From positions 5,280,001 to 5,312,000 of the forward strand of contig CP104013.1 in NCBI GenBank assembly GCA_025839675.1: DNA of 32,000 bases, written 5' to 3'. This DNA comes from Candidatus Lokiarchaeum ossiferum (GTDB lineage Archaea; Asgardarchaeota; Lokiarchaeia; Sigyniarchaeales; Promethearchaeaceae). The number at the start of each line of letters is the position of its first letter. The first letter of the stretch is position 1. Shown here in pieces: positions 11,534 to 25,008 of the stretch. The notes under the pieces were generated by a model. It ran no database searches and was not told the origin of the DNA. It was given only the letters and a program-made list of their open reading frames with translations. The position numbers and the translations under genes are program-made.

Positions 11534-13088
11534 TATATTTACAAATTTTTTAAATGAGCAATATAAGAATGGTAGATTACAACAAAATGATAATATTGGT
11601 TGTAATAAGGAACAAATAAAAGAAATTGAAGAAAAATATCAGATTAAATTCCCTAAAATTTACATTTCTTTTTTGGAAAATTTTGGACTTAAATCTGGAC
11701 AGATATTTCCTTCAAAACATTTTTTTTCTTATCCATATTTGTTAAAAATGAAAAAATTAGTTAAAGAGCATTTAGATTACTTACCAGAATTTTATCTATC
11801 TGAAAATTGTTTCATTTTTTATCTAATAGAAGACTTTGATACAAATGGAGCATTTTTGTTTTTTAAACTTATTGAGGGTATTGATGATCCTCCAATTTAT
11901 ATTTATAGTGAAGATTTTAATTTTCCAATTTTATTTTTTGAATCATTTTCTAAATGGCTTTTTTCAAATCATTATCTACCATTTAGAGATAAAATTTTTG
12001 TGATTTCTAATGATATCAATGAAGATGAATTTGATATAATATCAAAAATAAAAAATGAAGTTGGTTCTGCAGATATTAGAATAAAAACAAAAAATAAGAA
12101 AATTTGTGAATTATTTATCAATAATTCATCAATTAGTGAAATCCCAGAAGAAATTGGAAGAATTTCTGAATTGGAGCATTTAGATTTATCCAATAATTTT
12201 ATAGCAAATATACCTAATCATCTTGAAAAATTGCACAAATTAAAAAAGTTGAATCTATTTAATAATAAAATTCTTTCTATCTCTGATGAATTTAAAGATC
12301 TACAATCATTGGAAGTTCTTTCTTTATCAAAAAATGAAATTGGCATTTTCCCAAATGAAATATCAGAGCTAAAAAAATTGAGAGTATTAGCACTATCTAA
12401 TAATTATATTTCAAATATTCCAGATTCAATTAACAATTTAAAAAGGTTAGAGGAAATTTATTTAAATTCTTGCGATATTGATAAAATTTCACCACTATTG
12501 TTTAAATTGTCAAATTTAAGAGTTATTGAATTATATGATAACAATATTAATGGTATATCCGAAAATACAATAAAAAATGAAAATTTAAAAATTTTAGATT
12601 TTTCAAAAAATAATTTTTCTACTATACCTTCATTTATTTATTGTTTTAATAAATTGAATGAGTTAAAGTTTGATGATAATAACTTAACGACTATTACTGA
12701 ATCTATCAACCAACTGCTCAATCTAAGATTCTTATCATTGAAGAATAATAAAATTAATCAATTGTCAGACAATTTTGGTGATTTATCAAATTTAGAAGAA
12801 ATATATTTTGATAATAATATATTGCAAAACATTCCTTTTTCTATTTGCAATTTGCAGAATTTAAAGATTTTAAGTCTTAGAGGTAATAAGATTGAAGAAT
12901 TACCTGAAGAAATGCAGAATTTGACAAATCTAGAATATTTAGATATTTCTAAGAATCTACTAAAAATTTTACCAGAATGGATATTAAAATATAAACATAT
13001 AAAAAATATTGATTTTTATTTAAATCCTTTAAAAAATTCAAGTATCTTAAAAAAAATAGAACTGCAAAAAAAAAAACGAGATCATTAA
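11526..13088 (+). CDS. SUKH (SMI1/KNR4)-type immunity-like domain fused to a 14-repeat LRR solenoid
   Basis: The N-terminal ~160 aa carry the SMI1/KNR4 pattern: CNKEQIKEIEEKYQIKFPKIYISFLENFG ... FIFYLIEDFDTNGAFLFFKL ... DDPPIYIY. The C-terminal ~310 aa are 23-residue LxxLxLxxNxIxxIPxxIxxLxx repeats. The gene overlaps the upstream toxin-like ORF by 8 nt. Confidence 0.8.
   Translation: MIDIFTNFLNEQYKNGRLQQNDNIGCNKEQIKEIEEKYQIKFPKIYISFLENFGLKSGQIFPSKHFFSYPYLLKMKKLVKEHLDYLPEFYLSENCFIFYLIEDFDTNGAFLFFKLIEGIDDPPIYIYSEDFNFPILFFESFSKWLFSNHYLPFRDKIFVISNDINEDEFDIISKIKNEVGSADIRIKTKNKKICELFINNSSISEIPEEIGRISELEHLDLSNNFIANIPNHLEKLHKLKKLNLFNNKILSISDEFKDLQSLEVLSLSKNEIGIFPNEISELKKLRVLALSNNYISNIPDSINNLKRLEEIYLNSCDIDKISPLLFKLSNLRVIELYDNNINGISENTIKNENLKILDFSKNNFSTIPSFIYCFNKLNELKFDDNNLTTITESINQLLNLRFLSLKNNKINQLSDNFGDLSNLEEIYFDNNILQNIPFSICNLQNLKILSLRGNKIEELPEEMQNLTNLEYLDISKNLLKILPEWILKYKHIKNIDFYLNPLKNSSILKKIELQKKKRDH
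12108..13040 (+). repeat. 14 tandem 23-aa leucine-rich repeats (coding)
   Basis: Read directly from the translation: ELFINNSSISEIPEEIGRISELEH / LDLSNNFIANIPNHLEKLHKLKK / LNLFNNKILSISDEFKDLQSLEV / ... / LDISKNLLKILPEWILKYKHIKN / IDFYLNPL. Confidence 0.85.
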
Positions 13089-14933
13089 GTGAGTGAATTT
13101 TAAAAACTTAAAATTTACCGTTTTTTCGTTTTTTTCTTAATTCTGCTTCCCACTTCCGACGTTTATCCCAAAATGCTTTTTGTCGTGGATTTAAAGCAAT
13201 CTCTTGAAGTTGACAAAAACCTGAATCTCGTGCTAGTTTAATCCACATAGAGTTTGTTTTAAACTCCCTTCCAGTTGAAAATGCACTTAATTTCGTCAAT
13301 AAGTCAGTTCTACCTAATTTATATGCTGTAATTGCTCGCATTAAATCCAGTATATATGTTAAGGTACGATGAAGGTGGGCCATATTCAATCCACGAGTAT
13401 TTAATCGTTTTTGATTATAAAATGTAGGGTTTGCAGATTGACCTGCTTCAACTAAAGGTCGTTGAGCATACATTAATAATATGTCTTGCTCTGTCCATCC
13501 AGGTGGAAAATAATCGGAATTAAACCAAAATCCTTTTTTTAATTCCCGAGTTGGATGAGTTTTAAGGTGTTTTGGTGCACGAAGCAAAGGAAAAATGCCC
13601 CGATCTTGATAAAATTCCAGACTTTTCTTACAATACGTACCTGTATCACCCATCACCATCTTCCACTCTCCAATTTTAAGATTATTAAAAGCGGTAAAGG
13701 TTTTGCGGGATGCTGGTTTATCGTTCATATTGCCTGGAAAAGTCTCAAAATGTATTGGAAGTGCCCGTTTCCAGCTCCCACAATACGCATAAAGTGTCCA
13801 ATGAACAAATCCAACACCAAGCTTCTTCCCTGAATGACGATAATATCCAGCATCACTATCATTATACTTTGTTGTTTTTGAATTTTTATTGTTGTTACAG
13901 TTCGTTCTGACAAATTGACCATCAAAAATCATGATTCTAGGAATGATTATCCTAAGATCAATAAGCTTCACGAACTAAGTTATGAAAATAATCCATGACT
14001 CGGGAAAGAGGGATACGATTCATAATATAACTGATATCATCCGCGGAGGGAAAGTAGTAAGAATCATGTAAAATCCCCTTCAAAGGATTATCACCAATAA
14101 AATATGACATTTTTTCTAAACCTGAATAATCTTTGAATCCAAGCTGGCGACGAAGTAGTTCAAATGCGATAATATCATGAAGGAACATTCCTTTGAAATG
14201 AACTCCCTGTATCTCCAATTCATCTTGAATTTTATCAAAGTAACTAAGATCATTCATTTCAAAGATATGATTGAAATATCCTGAAAATTTTGGTAGCGTG
14301 TGGAGCATATCCCACTCTGACTGCGGAAGTATGCCTTTTGCATAATCATCATAAGTTGTTTGCCCAAGATTGCGAAATCGCATGAAGTACTTCCGTTTGG
14401 GAAGAATATGTGCAATATTTCCGTATATATAATGCTCTAATCGTGTTTGGGATTTAGAAACTATCAATGAAGGGGCTTTCCGGGCGTGACGCTTGAATGG
14501 AAACCATTTAAATTTTTTATATACATAGCGATATGTCTTTGGAATCCACATTTCAAGTATTTGAGTTGATTTCAGACCGATATAATCATGTAACTGCATT
14601 TGATATATTGAAGGCCGTCGTCGATATTTGAATATTAGAATAGCTGATGCACCCCAGATATTGAATATATTAGTGTAAGGAAAACAAGAATAAAATTGTT
14701 TTGGTTTTTATATTATCTAAAATCTTGAAATTGGGCATGATTTTATGCTCATCATCAGATCATTTAAGATCCACTAATTTGGCCTAGCAAACGGGAAATT
14801 TTGTGAATGCTAAAAAACGTGTCCACTTTTGCTCGACAAAATTAAATGTGGTATAAAATGGGGGATTCAAAGCCAATGGGTGATAAATTACTAAAAAAAG
14901 TGAAAATTACAAAAAGTACGATTCACTCAAGTA
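13089..14933 (-). mobile_element. IS4/IS5-family insertion sequence; ends not confidently defined
   Basis: It contains the split transposase. The only terminal-repeat candidate I found is short: GAGTGAAT 13091-13098 versus ATTCACTC 14921-14928, each abutted by AAGT (13087-13090 and 14929-14932). In AT-rich DNA this could be chance. Confidence 0.35.
13108..14599 (-). pseudogene. IS4/IS5-type DDE transposase split into two overlapping ORFs by a frameshift
   Basis: ORF 14599-13958 (213 aa) has an InsH/DUF772-like N-terminal region (FELLRRQLGFKDYSGLEKMSYFIGDNPLKGILHDSYYFPSADDISYIMNRI). ORF 13971-13108 (287 aa) is DDE_Tnp_1-like, with candidate triad IMIFDGQF / VMGDTGTY / YAQRPLVEAGQ. By codon phase (14599 = 1 mod 3, 13971 = 0 mod 3), joining them needs a +1 or -2 shift. 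Confidence 0.75.
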
Positions 14934-15954
14934 AATTTTCCTTTTTTTTTAACAAATCAAATGATTTCTTTCGTGACATTTTTTTTTTACTCTCTCTATT
15001 TTCAATAATTTTGACTTATTTTGATCTAAAATAACGACAATTTCTCTATTTGTTGCTTTATTTCTCAATTAGAGCCTTTAAGTCAAGTTGTTTAGAAAAA
15101 TTGACCTTCTTCCATCATTCCAAATTCTAACTCTACGCTATAGGATGCCAATCCCATTATCTTTAATGTATCAACTCAAATCACATAATATTTATATAAT
15201 CCACTGACAAAATCTATTTTATGGTGTCTAATTAAACTTTATTCCCCCGAATCTGATTGGAGAACAATAATTTTTTTTTGTGCTCTGATTAGTTCAGTAC
15301 ATTGAAAAAAAGTTTGTCATTCTGCGGTGCGACGTGAAAGCTATATAATTGAATGCAAATACAATTTGAAATTTGCCCTACTGATGACGTAGTGAAGCTA
15401 TCCAAACATGCGTACTTGGTAACAAGTGGGTGTGAAGCTCTGGAGACAATGTACTTCTTTTTGTGAACACACAGAAAAAGAAGGCTAGCTTGGGTTCCTA
15501 TGGTAAACGAAAGTGAACTGGTATTTAAACCTCGTAAGACAAACGATGGCGAAATGTGTTGATACGCCAAGCTAAAATAGCACTATTGTTGGTAAAGTAT
15601 ACTCGCGGGTTATACTTTTGTCATCCCTTTAGCAATCGGGGAAGAGCCAGTACCTAAGGGAGCTGTTAAAAGTCAATTATCTGGAACACGGTAAGTCTAA
15701 TGATCCCCATTGACATGGTAGCGTAAGGTCAAAATGACCGCCACTCATCGAGACTGGCTATGCTATACAGAATGGTAACCTAAAGGTAACTGAAGGTGAT
15801 GGATCAGTAGATAGAGGATGTCGGAGAAAGCTAAAGCATGACTGTAATCGTTGTGATAAATGCAAATGCATTAACGTGAAAACGTGCCCACTTCCGACTG
15901 GTAAACAATGTAGAAGAGATTCGAGAAAACTCAAAGAAAAGTAGTGATTACACA

Positions 15955-17427
15955 TTGAAGAAAATCAATGAATCAAACAAAGAACGGCATGAAGTTCAAG
16001 TCTGTTGGTCCAAAATTGATTGGATCTCAGTCTGCTCATACGTCGAGCGATTACAGGATCGAATCTACATAGCAACTGAAAAGAAAGAATTTCGAACGGT
16101 AAAAAATCTTCAAAAATTAGCAATTCGTTCGCATTATGTAAAATTGTATGCAATACGAAATGTTACACAACTTAATTCTGGTCGGAAAACACCTGGAATT
16201 GACGGAATCACATGTCTTAATAATAAAGAAAGAGAATCACTCTACGAGATAGTTAAAACTTTCTCTTACAGTTCAATTAAGTCGTATCATCCAAAACCAG
16301 TCAAGAGAATTGAAATTCCCAAGGCAAATGGAAAGCTACGACCTATTGGTATTCCTACTGTGTTTGACAGAGTAATCCAAATGCTTGTCAAAATCGCTTT
16401 AGAACCTGAATTTGAACAAAAATTTCACCAAAACTCTTTCGGATTTCGTCCTGGACGATGTTGTCAAGATGCTGTTGAGGTTATTAACTACACAATTAGA
16501 TATGGTAAAGGTGAATATATCTTAAATGCAGATATAACTGGTTGTTTTGACAACATTGCTCATTCAACCCTTTTATCCGAGTTGCACGTCTTCAAACCTC
16601 TTGTTAAGAAATGGTTAAAGGCAGGAGTTTTGATTAATAATCGCAAATACGGAACAGAGAAAGGCACACCCCAAGGAGGAATTATTTCTCCTCTTCTTAC
16701 TAATATTGCTCTCAATCGTTTGGATTATCTATTTAATCGCAAAATTTCTTATCGTGGCAAAGAATATCAGACTACTCTTGTTAGATACGCTGATGACATA
16801 GTCATTTTAAGCACTAGTAAAAATTTTCTTGTTAGGATCAAAGATGTACTTGCGAAAACACTTTTGAGACAGGGGTTAACTTTAAATACCAATAAAACTG
16901 TCTTGATTCATAAATCGGAAGGTTTCAAATTCCTTGGATTCCATTTTATTCAACATCCCTATAAAACTCTTTGGATACAACCTGAAAAAGCATCCGTTCA
17001 ACGTATGCTACACAAACTCAAAGTTCTTTTAGATTCGCACAAGCAGATAAAAAGTGACGCTCTAATTTATGCGTTGAACAAGCGAATCTTGGGTTGGGCA
17101 CGCTATTATCAATACTGTAGGATAAATGGTATTTTTAATCGGATGGATTCAATTGTATTTAGATGGATCTGGAAGTGGTGTACCAGAAGGCATCCTCGAA
17201 AACCAAGAAAATGGTTAAGGCAAAGGTATTTTAAAGCAGTCAATTCTTTGAACTGGGTTTTCTCAGGTGATATATGGAGTCTTTCTTATTTTGTAGATGT
17301 TAAGCGCAAGAAATATCGATGGCGAGTAGGAAAGGAGAGTTATTTAAATCCTCGAGAAAGAAAGTTGTGGAAACAAAATAATATATGCAATTCTATCTAT
17401 AATAATGCAAATTCAGTCTTTTCTTAA
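15955..17427 (+). CDS. Group II intron reverse transcriptase/maturase (no recognisable HNH endonuclease domain)
   Basis: RT motifs: RKTPGIDGI (RT0), IEIPKANGKLRPIGIPTVFDRVIQ (RT1/2), FGFRPGRCCQDA (RT3), ADITGCFDNIAH (RT4), GTPQGGIISPLLTNIALN and LVRYADDIVIL (RT5, YADD), KFLGFHF (RT7), and maturase X motif RILGWARYYQY. The start is a TTG. The frame is open from 15880 with no in-frame ATG nearby, so the N-terminus is uncertain. Confidence 0.9.
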   Translation: MKKINESNKERHEVQVCWSKIDWISVCSYVERLQDRIYIATEKKEFRTVKNLQKLAIRSHYVKLYAIRNVTQLNSGRKTPGIDGITCLNNKERESLYEIVKTFSYSSIKSYHPKPVKRIEIPKANGKLRPIGIPTVFDRVIQMLVKIALEPEFEQKFHQNSFGFRPGRCCQDAVEVINYTIRYGKGEYILNADITGCFDNIAHSTLLSELHVFKPLVKKWLKAGVLINNRKYGTEKGTPQGGIISPLLTNIALNRLDYLFNRKISYRGKEYQTTLVRYADDIVILSTSKNFLVRIKDVLAKTLLRQGLTLNTNKTVLIHKSEGFKFLGFHFIQHPYKTLWIQPEKASVQRMLHKLKVLLDSHKQIKSDALIYALNKRILGWARYYQYCRINGIFNRMDSIVFRWIWKWCTRRHPRKPRKWLRQRYFKAVNSLNWVFSGDIWSLSYFVDVKRKKYRWRVGKESYLNPRERKLWKQNNICNSIYNNANSVFS

Positions 17428-17557
17428 ATTCTTCTGTCATAGAAAAAGTAATTGGAAGTCGCAAAAGAGCTGTTGATACCGCATTTAGGGATATTCAACC
17501 AGATTACTGTGACCTGAACGAATTTGAGTTGTGGTGACGCATCAGTTCTATTTGCTT

Positions 17558-17591
17558 GAGCCACTTACTTTGAAAGAAATATGGGTGGTTC
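17558..17591 (+). ncRNA. Group II intron domain V (catalytic hairpin)
   Basis: GAGCCACUUACUUU-GAAA-GAAAUAUGGGUGGUUC is 34 nt. It has the AGC triad at positions 2-4, a GNRA (GAAA) tetraloop, and a basal GAGCCAC/GUGGUUC helix with the typical G-U pair. Confidence 0.85.
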
Positions 17592-17594
17592 TGA

Positions 17595-17629
17595 GGGGGG
17601 AACGGGTTAGTAATAACCTTGCCCTACCC
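17595..17629 (+). ncRNA. Group II intron domain VI with bulged branch-point adenosine
   Basis: Hand fold: G95-G97 pair with C27-C29; U25/A26 are bulged; G98-G600 pair with C22-C24; A01-C03 pair with U19-G21; G05-U08 pair with A15-C18; 6-nt loop. A17626 lies 6 nt before the proposed 3' end at 17632. Confidence 0.65.
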
Positions 17630-17632
17630 GAC

Positions 17633-17998
17633 CGTGGGGAACCCTTCCATCCATTGGGTGGAAGAGGTTCTCAGGGTCAAGCTACCTTTCAGAGATATTG
17701 GCACACTTGTCGTTGGTACCATCCATTCCAGTGATGAATGCTAGGATGTCTTCCCATTGATGAGTCCCATGCCACGAAATTTCGTCCGTCCCCAAAGCTA
17801 CCGATGCAATTCTTCGGGGTTTTTCTTTCCACACAAGGGGAACCGAGACTACAGCCAGACTTTCATGGTTCACAGGGAGAAAAGAAGAATCCATATGGTT
17901 TAAGAATTTCAAGTTCAAATTTGAAATGAAAAATTGGCAGAGTTTTAGCGCACTCTACCAAAGTGCGAATTCAGAAAGCGCTGAATTCGGTGAATAAT
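17633..17998 (+). ncRNA. Structured non-coding leader of the IS110 element; candidate bridge RNA
   Basis: The 366 nt are visibly richer in G+C than the flanks, with no convincing ORF. Hairpins found by hand: GAACCCUUCCA...UGGAAGAGGUUC (~17639-17670), palindrome ACGAAAUUUCGU (~17774-17785), CGCACU...AGUGCG (~17949-17967), and GAAUUCAG-aaagc-CUGAAUUC (~17967-17987). Confidence 0.3.
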
Positions 17999-19504
17999 AT
18001 GACAACTTTATTGAAGAAAAAACTTTCGATCAGTGATAGTTCTCCTCTATTGATCCCCATAAATGACGATTCCCACTCAGAACTTGAGACATTTTCAGAA
18101 TATGGGATAGGTATGAATGTTCATAAAGACAGTATTGCTTTATGTGTCAGTGGTAGGCTTCCTACCAACGATTATGTACAAATTCAAGAACACAATTTCA
18201 AGAATACTTATGTAGGAGTCAATGAATTATGCCAATTCTTAAAAAGATTCAGCAAAGCTACAACTTTTTTGATGGAGTGCACAGGTGTGTATCACGTAGC
18301 CCTATATCGGGCACTTCAAGAGAAATTTCCTCACCAAATAGACATCATCATAGCCATGAATCCCCTTCTTGTTCATAATCGGATTGAGGATTTGGGATCC
18401 AAGACAGATCGTGCTGATGCCCGCACTTTGTCATCCTTAGCACTCTACCATTCAATTCTCAGACCAAGATATGTGGGAAGTGTTGTTTTTTTTGCAATCA
18501 GAGATCTTATGCGCTCCTACCATCGAAACACAACGCAAGTGACAAGGTTAATAAATCGAATTCATCGACAACTTCATTTGGCGAATCAAAAGTTCAAGTT
18601 TGATCTGAATGCCGAGTGGGGACTTCATTTGCTGGATCAATATATCAATCAATCGTGGTCTTTGGGAGCTTGTTATAATCATTTGTTCTCAGATTTGAAA
18701 ACTAAAGGTAAATACAGAGTTTTAGAAAAGAAGCAAGAAGAAATTGTACCTCATGCGGAGGTGATTTTAGCAGATACACAACGATTTATCCTTCAAATGG
18801 ATTTATTATGCTTAATGAGCAGTCAACAATCCAGTGCAAACTTTCTTCATGAAACAGAACGACAAGTTCTGCTCACTCCAAGCTTAGCCAAACATTATCA
18901 GCATATGCGCATCATTCCAGGCTTTAGTTCTGCAACCATTCTAACTGTGTTGACGAAGATTGGTGATTATTCACGCTTTCGGAATGCCAATATCTTTTGC
19001 AAATTTTGCGGAGTCGTTCCGAACATTCAGCAAAGCGGCAATTACTCTGCCAAAGGACATGTGAATCGCTTTACCAACAAACACTTACGATCGGCACTAT
19101 CCCAAGCCGCAGCAGCTGTCATTGGACGGTCTAATAAAGACACGGATATCGATGCATTTGCCTATAAGCAACGTTTTCTGCGACATATGCCCTTTAAAAA
19201 AGCAATGTTGAAAGTAGCTCAGAAATATGCTCGGATTCTGTATGGAATGTTCAATGAGATTCGACAATATGATCCCCACTTTGAAATTAATCGGAAAAAG
19301 GCAAAACGATTGAAAGTGCGCTTAGAAAAGCAGAATAATTTGATAGAGAGTGTCCAAACCCGAGCTTTGAAACGCAATATATCAAATTTTTTAGTAGCAA
19401 ATTCAGAATTATTGAACAGTACAAGCCGCTATCATTTATTTACTGGCTTTCACCGTTTAATTCAGAAATCTCGATACAGGGAGAAGGAGGATCACACCAA
19501 ATAA
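17999..19504 (+). CDS. IS110-family (DEDD + Transposase_20) transposase/recombinase, 501 aa from ATG 17999
   Basis: N-terminal RuvC-like motifs: IGMNVHKDSIAL (Asn where the first Asp is expected), FLMECTGVYH, SKTDRADARTL. C-terminal motif: IIPGFSSATILTVLTKIGDYSRFRNANIFCKFCGVVPNIQQSGNYSAKGHVNRFTNKHLRSAL. I prefer ATG 17999, preceded by GGTGA at 17989-17993, over the ORF-track GTG at 17963, which lies inside a hairpin. Confidence 0.85.
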   Translation: MTTLLKKKLSISDSSPLLIPINDDSHSELETFSEYGIGMNVHKDSIALCVSGRLPTNDYVQIQEHNFKNTYVGVNELCQFLKRFSKATTFLMECTGVYHVALYRALQEKFPHQIDIIIAMNPLLVHNRIEDLGSKTDRADARTLSSLALYHSILRPRYVGSVVFFAIRDLMRSYHRNTTQVTRLINRIHRQLHLANQKFKFDLNAEWGLHLLDQYINQSWSLGACYNHLFSDLKTKGKYRVLEKKQEEIVPHAEVILADTQRFILQMDLLCLMSSQQSSANFLHETERQVLLTPSLAKHYQHMRIIPGFSSATILTVLTKIGDYSRFRNANIFCKFCGVVPNIQQSGNYSAKGHVNRFTNKHLRSALSQAAAAVIGRSNKDTDIDAFAYKQRFLRHMPFKKAMLKVAQKYARILYGMFNEIRQYDPHFEINRKKAKRLKVRLEKQNNLIESVQTRALKRNISNFLVANSELLNSTSRYHLFTGFHRLIQKSRYREKEDHTK

Positions 19505-19529
19505 AAAAAATGGAAACTTTATCACTAAG

Positions 19530-19567
19530 GATGACCACTAGGTCATCTGGCTAAAGTTTTTTTTTTT
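19530..19567 (+). terminator. Hairpin plus oligo-T tract downstream of the IS110 transposase (terminator and/or IS right end)
   Basis: GATGACC-acta-GGTCATC (19530-19547), followed by an 11-T run (19557-19567). Confidence 0.35.
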
Positions 19568-19694
19568 CTTTTTCTCTCCTTTTCACCTCATTACATCTGT
19601 GATATAAAAAATTTGCAATTTATAGTATGTCATACTAATGTAATTGTAATTTCTTTAGAAAATTTAGCCAATTAAGAATAGATGCAAAAATCTA

Positions 19695-19725: not shown

Positions 19726-22700
19726 ATGACCCAATCTGGAGTGAAGGGAAATTCTACAGCAAGTCCCACACAGTTAATCTCAGAATTATTCCATCCCGAA
19801 GGGAACTATACTTTCTTGGTGGGGGCAGGAATATCGATGAATGCCCCAGCGAATATTCCTAGCGCGGTCCAATTCGTCAAGAGCATTTTGGAACTTTGTG
19901 CCCCCCAAGAAGAAATAGACTCCATTCTCTCTTTACAATATCTACGGTATGAATTACTCATCGAGAAATTCAAAATCTATCTGGATACCAATCTACATTT
20001 CTTAGATTACTTAGAATTCGCAACCCAACCTAATCTACTTCACTTATTTTTAGCGAGTGCTTTACTGCATAAACAGTATTTAGTAACCACCAATTTTGAC
20101 TTCATGCTGGAGCGTGCCCTTCAAGCCATTTTATTACCCACCGAAGAATATAAAATTGTGCCAGTGATAACAAAAGCGGATTTTGGACGAGATTTTCGCC
20201 CATATGATTTAGTAGAACAAGGATTGTGTCCGATCTACAAAATTCATGGTTCCAAGAAAAATATTATAACGGGTGAAGATACCGCAGGGTCTCTGATCAC
20301 CACTATGGGGTCATTAGGAAGAGATAGGGCGATCGGGGAGACTTTTACGTTAGAGGAATATAAACAACAGCCTTTCTACAATTTAGTTAAAGGCCGTACC
20401 TTAATTGTCATGGGCTATTCGGGGAGTGATGACTTTGATATCGGTCCGATGTTAATGAATCTCCCGACCATTGAAAATTTGGTATGGATAGATCATTCTT
20501 CTGATAAGCATTGGAAAATTAATTGTATCGCCCCAGTTTCAACGTCGAATTCTTTCAAGAATCCTTCTTCAAAGACCTCCCAATTATTGCACAATATCGC
20601 ATCGAACATCAATATTTCAGTATATCATGTATTAGCCGATACTCATGACTTCGTGAAAACCGTTTTATGGCCAAAAATGATGCCTAATTTTCCCTTAGTA
20701 TCGGAAGAAATTCTACAAAACACCACCAAACTTCCCGATTTTAATCAATGGATTCAACAAGAATTCCAAAATGATTTACCAACGATGGTGAAAAAATGGC
20801 AATTTGCATGTTCTTTATATGCGGATTTTAATCAATGGAAGGCGCTAGGGCGTTGTGCAAAGAATGGGTTAGAAGAAAGTCAAAAGATTAATGATCCTCT
20901 CTCTCAAACCCTTTTTTTGAATTACTTAGGTAAAGCTCAAGCAAAACAGCTGAAGTTGTATTCTGCTATGCAACATTTTCAAGAAGGTTTAGATATTGCA
21001 GAAAAAACAGATCAGTTCGAATACATGGCCACTTTTATCAATAATGTCGGGGTGATCAGCAGTTATCTTCAATATGTGATGGATTCTTCCCAAAAAGAAG
21101 CCACTCTCGAAATGTTTGAAAATGCTCTCACGGTATTTGAACAACATCAAAATCAATGGGGAAAAATCGCCACTTTAACCAACATTGCCGGAATTGAATT
21201 TTTTCAAGGCAATTATTTGGAATCTAATAAGAATTTGATGGAGTCTTATACTCAAACTCAACATTTGGGCAACTTGGCATTCAAAAGTGTTATTTGTTAT
21301 GATTTAGCTATAATATGTGAATTTCTGATGTCTGAAAAAGACGTCCTAAACAATTATCATGAAGGGATTTCCATTAATCACCAGATGGGGGATGTTATAG
21401 GAGAATTAAATGGTCATTTTCAACTCCTTCAATATTGGTTCATAAAAGGAGATTATAAACAGGCAAAATCGGCCTTTTTACAAGCTCTCTCGCTTGGTTC
21501 TAAATGTAAAAATGAATCTTTGATTGCTGATCTCTATTCATGGAAAGCGTGGGTTGATTATAAAACCAATAATCTCGGCTCAGCCATTCAAAATATGCAA
21601 AAAACGTTTCAAATGTATGAGTCTTTGCAAAAAATAGATTTAGTGCGTTTATGGCAAGCTCAATCTTTAAGTGACCTTGGATATTTCGAATTTGGGCAAA
21701 ACCAACCTGAAAAAGCTTTAACTCATTGGAAACAAGCGCTCGCTCTAATTGAAGAAAAAAATCTCCATTCGCCTTACATTGAAATTATATCCAAACAACT
21801 CAACGGGAATATTAAAATTGCGCAAGATGAAATAAGGGTTCTTCCCTCACTCGATAATATCCTTCCTTACATTTCTGACCTTACTCATCATTTAAACTCG
21901 CTAGACGACAAAATTAAATTTTTGGAAAAGGCAATTGCTTCAGAATTCAAGTCTATTGATCTTCCTCCCTTTGAAGATCCTTTTCAAGGGAAAGTATACG
22001 CTAAAATTGATGCTCTCTTTGATCTTGGCTATTTATTCCTTACTAATCGAGATTCTATCAGAAGTACAGAAAAATTTGAACTTGCAATCGATCTTATTTC
22101 TCGCTTAGAACAATATTCCATGCTTGAAAGACATTTTGAAAATTTTGCTCATCTAGGTATTATTTGGAAGAATATTAGGGCGTATCGAACCCAATATTTC
22201 TTCCTAACTCAAGATGATTTTGATTTGACACAAGAAAACCTTAGTTGGATGGCTAGTTGGCACTCGCGGTCAAAATCAAAGGATGCCTTTAAATTTATGC
22301 ATCAAGCCCAGGATTGCTTCAACGATGAAAAATATACGGAGGCGATCGAATTATTTTCAAAAGCGAAAGACATCTTTGAAAAACTTGGGGAAACACGACA
22401 AGTGCAAGAAATCCAAGAAACCATAGATACGGTTCTAGTATTGAATGCGGTTGAAAATAAAAATTTGAAAGAAGAGATGACAAAAGATCCTGAATCCACC
22501 TTAAAAGTCTTGCAAACTCTACAGAAAATGAAGCTTCGTGGAAAATCAAATTCAACAGAAGAAGAAGATTCAGAATCTATTAAAATTGCTGAAGATAATC
22601 AAGATGATTCTTTTTCTAGTTTAAACGGGGTGTTCAACCGCGATTTGGTTTCTTCTACTCAATTTTTAATCACTTTGGAAGACAAAGGGCGTAACATCGA

Positions 22701-25008
22701 TTTTGTCCAAGACCATGATGATGAATTTTTCAATACATTGAGTAAACTTGATATGGCCTTAAAAATGTCTGAATCCATGGATGCAAATCAACCTTTGGAA
22801 AAGGTTGATTTGCTCGTTTTTATGGGTCAATATCTCGCGCAAAATAAAGAATTTACCATGGCTCAAGAACGGTTAGAGGAAGCCTATCACATTTCGAAAG
22901 TCTATGGGCGGGAAGCAAAGTCATATCTCGCAGATATTTGCAAAGGATTTGGGAATTTATATTATCACCAAGAAAAATGGGATGAAAGCTTACGGTATTT
23001 TGAGCAGAGTGTGAGGTTATATGAAACACTTCACAAATTAAAAGATGCGGCGATCTGTTTAAACATGCTCGGAGTTGTAAATCTTAAAATTCAAGATAAT
23101 CAAAGGGCATTATTTTATTTTGAGCAAGTCCAAAAATTCCCTATAAATGAAGAAAATGCTGAAAAAGTGGCAGAAAATTTAGTTAGGGCTGCTGAACAAC
23201 ATGAATTTTTTGGTCATTTTCAGCAGTCCCTTTCCTTTTTGCTGCAAAGTCAACAAATTTATGAAAGCTACCAGATCGAATCCAATATACTCGCTCCAAC
23301 ATATTTGAAAATTGCTCAACTCTATTTTTTAGTTGGTCATTTTGATAAAGCGCTACCTTATTATGAAAACGCTCTGAAACAATATCAACTGAGTGGTGAC
23401 ACTCATTATATCACGGTCTTACCCAAAAAAATTGAGGAATTGCAAAATAAACAACCTGATCAAGAAGTGCGATTAAAGGCTTTCTTTCATAAGGCGGAGG
23501 CCATGTGGGGTTCTGATGAACCCTTGAGTGACCTCTTGAAAGCTTATCAGAAAGTACTATTTATTGAGAGTTTTATTCCAAATATTGAGATTAAAGCAAA
23601 AACTTATTATAATCTCGGAGTTATTTACTCGATTTTAGGCGATCCCTATCATACACGAACTAATTTAGAAAAATTCTTTCAATTACTGGATTCAATTCCT
23701 TCAGATCCTCCTCTTGAAGAATTGAAATCGGATGCAACCACAAAACTTAACTTGGTTAAAGCCATTCCCGATTCCATTGAATTCTATGAAAACCAATTGG
23801 AAGATTTGCTCACAGAAGAGAATTATATCCAGGTTGGGAAGGTATATCGTCATCTTCTTCGTTTTTTTAATTTAAATCGGGATTATGGGAAATTAAGTCT
23901 AGCTTTATATAATTTTGCTCAAATTACCTTTACCAATTTGAATAATTTTAATGAAGCTATGCTTCTTTTTAAATTCAGCGCAGATGTATTTGCGCAATTA
24001 GGGGATGAACAAAAACGAAATGAAATTTGGAAAGAGCTTTCATCACAATATTTCACCCATGAACAGAAAGAGAAAAGTGTGGAATTTTGCCTAAAACTTG
24101 TGGATTATTATAAAGATCATCCTAATGAAACAGAATTATGTAAAATGGCCAATTTCACCGGAAATATCTATTCTGATTTACGAAAATATGAATTAGCAAG
24201 TAACTATAAAGAAATTGCTTTGAATTGTTGTAAAAGCTTGGAACTCCCTGATGAAAAACTGGATATTTTAATTGGTTTAGGATTCGTACAAGAACAGCAG
24301 GCAAATCTGGATGCTGCTTTACAAGCTTACCAAGAAGGTTTGCATTATGCTATCGATCAACAACATTCTGTATACATTCAAGCTTTCAATATTAATCTTG
24401 CAGAAATCAACTATTTTCAAGGAAATTTTCCGAAGGCAGAAGAATTCTCTCAAAAAGCAGTTGAATTATTTGATACCGTACAAATTGGAGATTATCTCGC
24501 CGTCGCTCATTCTCGCTTGGGGGATCTCCATTTTGATCAAAATGAGATCGAAAAAGCTCAGGAGTACTATGCCAAAGCGTGTGACTTTCACCAACAACAA
24601 GGAAATCAAGTAGATTTCTGGAATACTCAGCTAAAATATGATTTTTGTAAATATAAAATAGATCCTACTGAATTCTCTATTGAAGTATTTGATGAACGAG
24701 TAAAGGAGTGTGAACCCTTTGAAAATTCAGATACAAAAATTGAAATTTATATGACCATTGCCAAAATATGTGTTTCTCAGCAAAAATTTGAGAAAGCGCA
24801 AACTTTCTTCACTTTGGGATTGAGTTTAAGTGAACTACTTGCAAACGCCCTTTTTACAGCCTTTATTCTATATCTTTGGGGAAAAATGGAGTTTTTAAGT
24901 TTAGATAAGCCAGTAGGTATTGAAAAACTGACTCTCGCGAAAGATAAGTTTAAGCGGATAAATAACCCTGAAATCGAACAAGATATTCAAAAATTGCTCG
25001 AAAATTAA
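19726..25008 (+). CDS. SIR2-like (SIR2_2-type) domain fused to about 1400 aa of TPR repeats, 1760 aa
   Basis: SIR2 motifs: YTFLVGAGISMN (GAGIS 19822-19836), LVTTNFDFMLERA (Asn123, 20092-20094), YKIHGS (His174, 20245-20247), LIVMGYSGSDDFDI. The rest is KLC-like TPR units, interrupted by an acidic/Ser-rich linker (...STEEEDSESIKIAEDNQDDSF...). No Walker A motif was found. Confidence 0.85.
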   Translation: MTQSGVKGNSTASPTQLISELFHPEGNYTFLVGAGISMNAPANIPSAVQFVKSILELCAPQEEIDSILSLQYLRYELLIEKFKIYLDTNLHFLDYLEFATQPNLLHLFLASALLHKQYLVTTNFDFMLERALQAILLPTEEYKIVPVITKADFGRDFRPYDLVEQGLCPIYKIHGSKKNIITGEDTAGSLITTMGSLGRDRAIGETFTLEEYKQQPFYNLVKGRTLIVMGYSGSDDFDIGPMLMNLPTIENLVWIDHSSDKHWKINCIAPVSTSNSFKNPSSKTSQLLHNIASNINISVYHVLADTHDFVKTVLWPKMMPNFPLVSEEILQNTTKLPDFNQWIQQEFQNDLPTMVKKWQFACSLYADFNQWKALGRCAKNGLEESQKINDPLSQTLFLNYLGKAQAKQLKLYSAMQHFQEGLDIAEKTDQFEYMATFINNVGVISSYLQYVMDSSQKEATLEMFENALTVFEQHQNQWGKIATLTNIAGIEFFQGNYLESNKNLMESYTQTQHLGNLAFKSVICYDLAIICEFLMSEKDVLNNYHEGISINHQMGDVIGELNGHFQLLQYWFIKGDYKQAKSAFLQALSLGSKCKNESLIADLYSWKAWVDYKTNNLGSAIQNMQKTFQMYESLQKIDLVRLWQAQSLSDLGYFEFGQNQPEKALTHWKQALALIEEKNLHSPYIEIISKQLNGNIKIAQDEIRVLPSLDNILPYISDLTHHLNSLDDKIKFLEKAIASEFKSIDLPPFEDPFQGKVYAKIDALFDLGYLFLTNRDSIRSTEKFELAIDLISRLEQYSMLERHFENFAHLGIIWKNIRAYRTQYFFLTQDDFDLTQENLSWMASWHSRSKSKDAFKFMHQAQDCFNDEKYTEAIELFSKAKDIFEKLGETRQVQEIQETIDTVLVLNAVENKNLKEEMTKDPESTLKVLQTLQKMKLRGKSNSTEEEDSESIKIAEDNQDDSFSSLNGVFNRDLVSSTQFLITLEDKGRNIDFVQDHDDEFFNTLSKLDMALKMSESMDANQPLEKVDLLVFMGQYLAQNKEFTMAQERLEEAYHISKVYGREAKSYLADICKGFGNLYYHQEKWDESLRYFEQSVRLYETLHKLKDAAICLNMLGVVNLKIQDNQRALFYFEQVQKFPINEENAEKVAENLVRAAEQHEFFGHFQQSLSFLLQSQQIYESYQIESNILAPTYLKIAQLYFLVGHFDKALPYYENALKQYQLSGDTHYITVLPKKIEELQNKQPDQEVRLKAFFHKAEAMWGSDEPLSDLLKAYQKVLFIESFIPNIEIKAKTYYNLGVIYSILGDPYHTRTNLEKFFQLLDSIPSDPPLEELKSDATTKLNLVKAIPDSIEFYENQLEDLLTEENYIQVGKVYRHLLRFFNLNRDYGKLSLALYNFAQITFTNLNNFNEAMLLFKFSADVFAQLGDEQKRNEIWKELSSQYFTHEQKEKSVEFCLKLVDYYKDHPNETELCKMANFTGNIYSDLRKYELASNYKEIALNCCKSLELPDEKLDILIGLGFVQEQQANLDAALQAYQEGLHYAIDQQHSVYIQAFNINLAEINYFQGNFPKAEEFSQKAVELFDTVQIGDYLAVAHSRLGDLHFDQNEIEKAQEYYAKACDFHQQQGNQVDFWNTQLKYDFCKYKIDPTEFSIEVFDERVKECEPFENSDTKIEIYMTIAKICVSQQKFEKAQTFFTLGLSLSELLANALFTAFILYLWGKMEFLSLDKPVGIEKLTLAKDKFKRINNPEIEQDIQKLLEN

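Follow-up and report, generated by a model that had tools for sequence, protein, structure and literature searches.

The closest described relatives of the element analysed here are IS621 and ISCro4, two bridge RNA systems of the IS110 group (PMC11208160, PMC13626964; PDB 8wt6, 8wt9 and 9t56). Two recent preprints report that excision of IS110 elements frees the top strand as a single-stranded circle (10.1101/2025.10.25.684509; 10.64898/2026.08.31.748434). For CazIS110-1, the first of them describes a single-stranded donor as about 20-fold poorer than a duplex one at the right junction (10.1101/2025.10.25.684509). The 2025–2026 papers leave two questions open: the strandedness of IS110 circles (single or double), and the way in which a single-stranded circle is recognized although it offers the left donor guide no bottom strand for pairing. 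An IS110 family of Lokiarchaeia is a natural, covariation-backed candidate answer to the question of single-stranded circle recognition.

The window, a stretch of 32,000 nucleotides from Candidatus Lokiarchaeum ossiferum, belongs to a genome assembled as a single 6,035,313-bp contig with 33.6% G+C. It contains a whole IS110-family element, intron included, at 14969–19559 on the plus strand, to which the coordinates of all its parts given below refer. The element measures about 2,285 bp without the intron and has a TT(T) core at either boundary. A genome search found no second copy of the element or of its intron, and because the element is single-copy, its boundaries were taken from multi-copy relatives, at the points where homology ends and the flanks diverge. 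All multi-copy families have a short core at both junctions, a T run of TT or TTT. Named recombinase homologues come mostly from Promethearchaeota/Lokiarchaeia, and the cultured Promethearchaeum syntrophicum carries eight copies of the family in two sub-families, which are active-looking members. A paralogous element, 40% identical, is present in the same genome as three copies and one lone left end (G000:C1:5676040-5676481), in which the left target guide and the flank have co-changed at the base preceding the core.

Another mobile element, with pieces of a DDE transposase on the minus strand, occupies 13108–14950 and ends about 20 bp 5' of the IS110 left end; its terminal 250 bp occur four further times in the genome. 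The flanking genes at 11526–13088 and 19726–25008 encode an SMI1/KNR4-LRR protein and a SIR2-TPR protein, surroundings that, on these predicted products, form a conflict or defence-like neighbourhood.

The recombinase is a 501-aa DEDD protein encoded at 17999–19504, with PF01548 and PF02371 domains. Its start at ATG 17999, also chosen by an earlier sequence-only reading of this DNA, agrees with a first methionine that is nearly invariant among 52 homologues and with a ribosome-binding site, GGTGA, at 17989–17993. An alignment-based structural model (pLDDT 82) best matches IS621 and ISCro4 (Foldseek E 4e-12, target TM 0.76); a single-sequence model with pLDDT 35 was set aside. Relative to IS621, helical additions are confidently modelled at residues ~200–260 and ~400–501 (19200–19501), and these could touch extra RNA helices or the donor hairpin. 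Residue 40 (codon 18116–18118) is Asn in the window copy and Asp in 53 of 54 sequences. The DEDD tetrad of the window copy is therefore not intact (first catalytic Asp to Asn), while Ser346 is present; the E, D, D and Ser of the catalytic set are conserved across the family.

The left end consists of 14972–15326 and 17633–17998, about 721 nt in all, and the right end of about 55 bp. The two pieces are joined because intron-free relatives and a two-piece covariance-model match span the insertion site. When the intron is cut out in silico, the joined exons are 82% identical to the intron-free relative L003 over 670 nt, across the insertion site, and about 20 more relatives are likewise uninterrupted there. 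When a covariance model was built without the window, its match to the window broke off at 15326 and picked up again at 17633. The sequence-only reading had proposed that the 366 nt at 17633–17998 are a candidate bridge RNA. The region is very probably part of the bridge RNA of the IS110 element, judging from its conserved structure and guides; it is archaeal and lies in the left end, as in the IS110 group. It is, however, only the second exon, made up of a linker hairpin, the donor-binding loop (about 17675–17790), 3' hairpins and the ribosome-binding site, whereas the target-binding loop (15258–15319) lies in exon 1, across the intron. The two loops are alike, each with a 9-nt guide on its 3' side preceded by AT, giving a two-internal-loop RNA in the non-coding end; for the donor loop, the assignment of an outer closing helix is ambiguous, and the RNA is split by the intron in the window copy.

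The 366-nt region is taken to be non-coding because its short open reading frames (63 aa on the plus strand, 78 aa on the minus strand and 67 aa starting in the intron) overlap and because many indels among homologues across 17633–17998 are not multiples of three, which bears out the earlier judgement that no frame there is credible. Its G+C content is 44.8%, against 38.5% in the recombinase frame, 37.1% in the intron and 33.6% in the genome. The impression of a G+C-rich leader thus holds overall, but only the first 250 nt (49.6%) are responsible for it; the last 116 nt have 34.5%. As a single sequence, the region folds only modestly better than its shuffles (z -2.2). At least four hairpins had been folded by hand; those at 17636–17673, 17699–17769, 17934–17961 and 17966–17989 recur among homologues, and the first three show compensatory changes. 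Covarying stems, which the sequence-only reading had suggested seeking in homologous copies, are present: across 21 relatives, 93.7% of cells are paired, 17 of 35 pairs show double-sided change, and all 500 shuffles and all slid controls are exceeded, on a structure partly derived from the same alignment, which favours it. A pseudoknot of helices 75–78/273–276 and 122–125/332–335 is not claimed, as the two cross each other and lack double-sided changes. The last two hairpins, next to the ribosome-binding site, may serve translational control rather than form guide RNA.

A TATA-like box conserved in 21 elements lies at 15191–15198, inside the left end and about 220 nt from the circle junction. 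Transcription is predicted, from archaeal TATA spacing, to start at about 15223, which would give an RNA of about 340 nt if it stops at the last conserved helix and of as much as about 470 nt if it reaches the start codon, longer than the 150–250 nt first expected. The box is 2.3 kb upstream of the 366-nt region, beyond the intron, in line with the suspicion that the intron parts the region from its promoter. About 6 nt 3' of the box, a CGACAAAA-type motif (15205–15212) is conserved in 21 elements and is possibly a protein-binding site for autoregulation. At E<=1, Rfam 15 matched only intron domains in this locus and gave no family for the bridge RNA; a sigma-70 and terminator scan, using models unsuited to archaea, stayed at chance level. 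In 151 genomes of the order, a covariance model of the 5' 151 positions had no matches outside the host family. One pattern match in a viral contig is AT-rich, lacks the rest of the RNA and was taken as chance.

Four guides can be assigned. The left and right target guides (15269–15277 and 15303–15311) lie in the target-binding loop, the left donor guide occupies 17689–17697 with a 7-nt covarying core at 17691–17697, and the right donor guide (17771–17779) is the complement of the core plus the bases that open the left end. All four covary with their cognate DNA in 15–20 element families (permutation p<=5e-5 each), although the permutation and Fisher tests ignore relatedness and one guide state maps to a single branch. 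The left target guide matches its own left flank at 3.09 of 6 positions against 2.13 for non-cognate flanks (p 3e-5), a signal abolished by shifts of 1–2 nt; for the right target guide and right flank the values are 7.79 against 7.07 of 9 (p 2e-5), with shifted controls not significant. The right donor guide scores 4.37 against 2.90 of 5 on the left-end start, and the fourth guide/DNA pair 6.75 against 5.32. In the window copy, 7 of 9 positions agree between the left target guide and the left target flank plus core (14963–14971). The strand polarity is that of a bridge RNA: the left target guide pairs the left target's bottom strand, the right target guide the right target's top strand, and the right donor guide the top strand of the left-end start. 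That start (14972–14985) contains the right-donor sequence (14972–14976) and the left sub-terminal repeat (14977–14985), complementary to 19504–19512, and covaries with both the right donor guide and the right-end repeat. The right donor guide partly served to locate the left-end position, which the boundaries of multi-copy elements support independently and an all-against-all scan supports too. Targets are AT-rich with a T run at the end; 17 of 34, a count taken without a chance control, are no more than 30 nt away from the stop codon of a frame on the same strand that is at least 80 codons long, a placement compatible with oligo-T terminators.

The fourth guide departs from expectation. Complementarity to the ends and flanks of the element had been anticipated, and three guides behave as in IS621, but the left donor guide pairs an internal arm. 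The right end (19504–19559), defined by homology and junction folding, comprises a sub-terminal repeat (19504–19512), a 5' arm (19513–19528), an inner hairpin (19530–19547), and a 3' arm with the core (19549–19559). The left donor guide is complementary to a top-strand 7-mer of the hairpin's 5' arm (19520–19526, with one mismatch in the window copy), which lies about 35 bp in from the right terminus of the element. This pairing is the top signal of an unbiased scan of the RNA against the right end, and the same scan found no conserved match to the terminal right-end bases anywhere in the RNA. Across 15–20 families, the guide matches the canonical terminal bases at 1.2 of 7 positions, which is not significant. 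Four guide/arm states occur in the near clade, where 2–4 variable bp separate the guide-bound arm from the core. In seven held-out elements, six of them at 25–28% protein identity, the arm matches at 6.3 of 7 positions against 3.7 when permuted (p 2e-4), and the canonical terminal bases at 2.4 of 7 against 2.4. Registers in the distant clade are motif-anchored, and those of L143, L135 and L136 were read by eye.

In L108 the arm was located only after the guide had been read, and it matches at 7/7. The guide of L013 matches the arm at 7/7 and the terminal DNA at 6/7, a double match that suggests, and would be expected from, an origin of the arm by inverted copying of the donor site. Uncompensated guide/arm breaks occur in L028, L030, L007 and the window copy; the mismatch of the window copy is absent in a 92%-identical relative. 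D40N together with this mismatch probably renders the window copy inactive in cis. The possibility of an inverted pseudo-donor in the duplex right end was rejected by inspection, the core or the right-donor match being missing. In L051 (2390–2470), the last 27 bp of the right end, core included, are tandemly duplicated. Ca. Harpocratesius has non-autonomous elements of about 150–210 bp (L085:4758-4915, G135) in which the start of the left end and the terminal bases of the right end are retained; one short element of this kind apparently has no right-end hairpin arm, an observation relevant to whether the arm is needed.

Circle junctions assembled in silico (right end, core and left end) fold into one long hairpin in 18 of 18 distinct cases, with 12–16 pairs crossing the junction and z-scores of -4.3 to -9.2; the junctions of five distant elements and of L108 fold too. 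The sub-terminal repeats pair across the junction and the arm's partners are the terminal bases and the core, leaving the guide-bound segments partly in an internal loop and a 4–6-nt bulge. Changes in the sub-terminal repeat and in the base that follows the core are accompanied by changes in their partners about 50 nt away. G–T pairs are rarer in the right-end inner hairpin (5 of 144) than in the RNA hairpins (120 of 754), a scarcity that leans softly towards DNA. Top-strand and bottom-strand junctions fold about equally well.

Complementarity, covariation and foldability together suggest, with a probability of roughly 60%, that the donor is fold-back, single-stranded DNA; its DNA nature, its strandedness and its role as substrate are all drawn from these three lines. 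In the proposed mechanism, a promoter within the left end would produce a long bridge RNA, which in the window copy is interrupted by the group II intron and could become whole only through splicing. The target loop would direct insertion to AT-rich sites with a terminal T run, a step that covariation supports. The recombinase is assumed to free a single-stranded circle of the top strand, in keeping with the reports on IS621 and CazIS110-1. At the circle junction, the right end would fold over the core and left-end start, the hairpin acting as its own 'bottom strand'. The right donor guide would then read the left-end start, partly bulged out, and the left donor guide would read the 5' arm of the hairpin, partly in an internal loop; the complementarity is computed, and its use in recombination is the proposal. 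Because the left donor guide would read a substitute bottom strand carried on the right end, the circle could insert without second-strand synthesis, and a self-supplied bottom strand would address the roughly 20-fold deficit reported for CazIS110-1. We put at about even odds the broader statement that the Lokiarchaeia IS110 clade performs RNA-guided recombination on a self-folded single-strand donor, that its circle inserts without second-strand synthesis, and that the window intron makes the guide splicing-dependent.

RNA–RNA pairing with the 3' UTR is the main rival to the fold-back donor, although we consider it unlikely. It accepts the bridge RNA and supposes that the left donor guide pairs an RNA copy of the right end, supplied by the 3' UTR of the recombinase mRNA or by read-through of the circle junction. 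The pairing could be an inhibitory switch, or the second RNA piece could itself supply the terminal donor guide; the hairpin might double as a terminator, and the right donor guide would carry DNA donor recognition. Since such a transcript has the top-strand sequence, identical covariation is predicted. A T run lies directly 3' of the hairpin, half-match recognition is reported for IS621 (10.64898/2026.08.31.748434), and RNA contigs, from which the ends and strand of a transcript cannot be read and which DNA carry-over may explain, cover exon 2 and 19196–19574. The compensatory pairing of right end with left end across the junction, at the sub-terminal repeat and the core-adjacent base, is hard to explain in this way, however, and the poverty of the right-end hairpin in G–T pairs and the double match of L013 also speak against it.

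A double-stranded donor is less probable still. The hairpin would then be a transient cruciform, or the arm in duplex DNA would be a remote anchor, mainly for right-junction excision, and a duplex circle would insert. The equal folding of both strands agrees with this, few G–T pairs would fit a two-stranded cruciform, and CazIS110-1 is reported to favour duplex donors about 20-fold at one junction (10.1101/2025.10.25.684509); yet the conserved bulges and internal loops at the guide-binding segments would make a long cruciform costly, as would outer-stem G–T pairs, which are mismatches on the bottom strand. Very little weight is left for a structured 5' UTR or regulatory leader, or a plain intron-flanking exon, with guide matches arising by chance in AT-rich DNA. 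The target guides are indeed low-complexity A/T runs, no Rfam family is matched, and the last two hairpins abut the ribosome-binding site, where translational control may be their role. Against this stand the register-specific covariation of four guides with null shifted controls, the held-out arm test, the two-loop architecture and a recombinase fold like those of IS621 and ISCro4, and the idea is largely refuted computationally. Covariation and complementarity are both present, the region is part of the left end of the IS, and the layout is not IS1111-like: neither a downstream guide RNA with a long right end nor inverted repeats ~7 and 3 bp from the ends were found. By its sequence features, the family looks like an IS110 bridge system, except for the canonical left-donor geometry and, in the window copy, the catalytic tetrad.

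Prokaryotic group II introns insert in mobile elements, and the intron at 15327–17632 lies between the two loops of the bridge RNA, so that exon 1 carries the target loop and exon 2 the donor loop. It begins with GTGCG at 15327, has Rfam hits at 15378–15556 and 17556–17632 (RF00029), domains V (34 nt) and VI, a 3' AY, and an RT/maturase frame (15955–17427) without an endonuclease domain. EBS2 (15538–15544) pairs 7/7 with 15312–15318, and EBS1 (15604–15609) pairs 6/6, with two G–U pairs, with 15321–15326. The sequence-only reading correctly put the intron 3' end, 17632, at the edge of the 366-nt region, but that edge is not the start of the leader, since the left end runs to about 721 nt with the intron inside it; its suggestion that the intron had landed within the element agrees with the relatives that are uninterrupted across the site. 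Because the intron sits between the target and donor loops, an intact guide in the window copy would depend on splicing. RNA contigs from four runs of one study run unspliced over the border of intron and exon 2 and contain no spliced joint; contigs of three runs end at 17974–18000, and none covers exon 1 or the initial 500 nt of the intron.

The insertion site is a conserved linker, and most relatives would fit the intron too. None of about 30 intron loci has another intron at this position of the RNA, so no claim is made that the intron homes to bridge RNAs in particular; on these loci, the intron in the bridge RNA is one event, with no demonstrated homing family. A related intron (L083:1-2520, 63% protein identity) lies in the frame of another IS110 recombinase directly after the D-V-H motif, just after the first catalytic motif; its joined exons restore the frame, and its EBS1 has changed to suit, covarying with the site. 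Group II introns nested within group II introns occur at the related loci L082, L151 and L154.

If the fold-back donor is real, the family offers a bridge recombinase suited to single-stranded cargo, and some donors escape guide prediction based on terminal matching. It is rare for a mobile intron to interrupt a guide RNA, though the copy in question is probably dead; an archaeal bridge RNA, taken alone, adds to a class already known. A literature search that covered few subscription papers found no fold-back donor, Asgard bridge RNA or intron in a bridge RNA.

The Loki family shares with IS621 and ISCro4 a DEDD RuvC plus Ser-Tnp fold, a long left and a short right end, a target loop 5' of the donor loop, left guides of about 9 nt, and the strand polarity of both target guides and the right donor guide. 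Its left donor guide reads an internal top-strand arm, whereas that of IS621 reads the terminal right-end bases, and its arm–core offset varies by 2–4 bp where the IS621 register is fixed. Further differences from IS621 and ISCro4 are an RNA predicted at about 340–470 nt with extra helices (against 177), a putative TATA-type promoter within the left end that would not be rebuilt at the circle junction, sub-terminal repeats of 8–11 bp (against 2–3 bp), a 501-aa recombinase with helical additions (against ~326 aa) and, in the window copy alone, an intron.

Integron attC sites and the sub-terminal hairpins of IS200/IS605 also recombine on a folded single DNA strand with bulges. There, proteins (tyrosine or HUH enzymes) rather than an RNA guide do the reading, and the enzymes are unrelated to that of the Loki family, so the likeness of its proposed donor to them is an analogy only. 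Top-strand copy-out and a single-stranded circle are assumed for the Loki family as in CazIS110-1 (10.1101/2025.10.25.684509) and the IS621 half-match model (10.64898/2026.08.31.748434). In those sources, the circle is taken to be made double-stranded or inserts more poorly as a single strand, and no self-folded donor appears in the parts available.

The IS1111 group and its seekRNA (10.1101/2024.04.26.591405) have sub-terminal inverted repeats of similar length, the left one starting about 5 nt past the core. Unlike that group, the Loki family has its RNA upstream of the gene and a short right end, and its right repeat lies about 45 bp from the end, with the hairpin between, rather than 3 bp. 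In ISPpu10 (10.64898/2026.03.19.712850), a DNA stem-loop likewise contributes to IS110 recognition, but there it lies in the target and is described as a determinant apart from guide pairing, whereas the Loki stem-loop is in the donor and is the partner of the guide. The intron resembles those of mobile elements and of Asgard archaea (10.1101/2024.12.10.627823) in its GUGCG start, domain V, pairing of EBS1 and EBS2 with the 5' exon, and RT/maturase; unlike the other group II introns compared, it has a guide RNA as its host exon.
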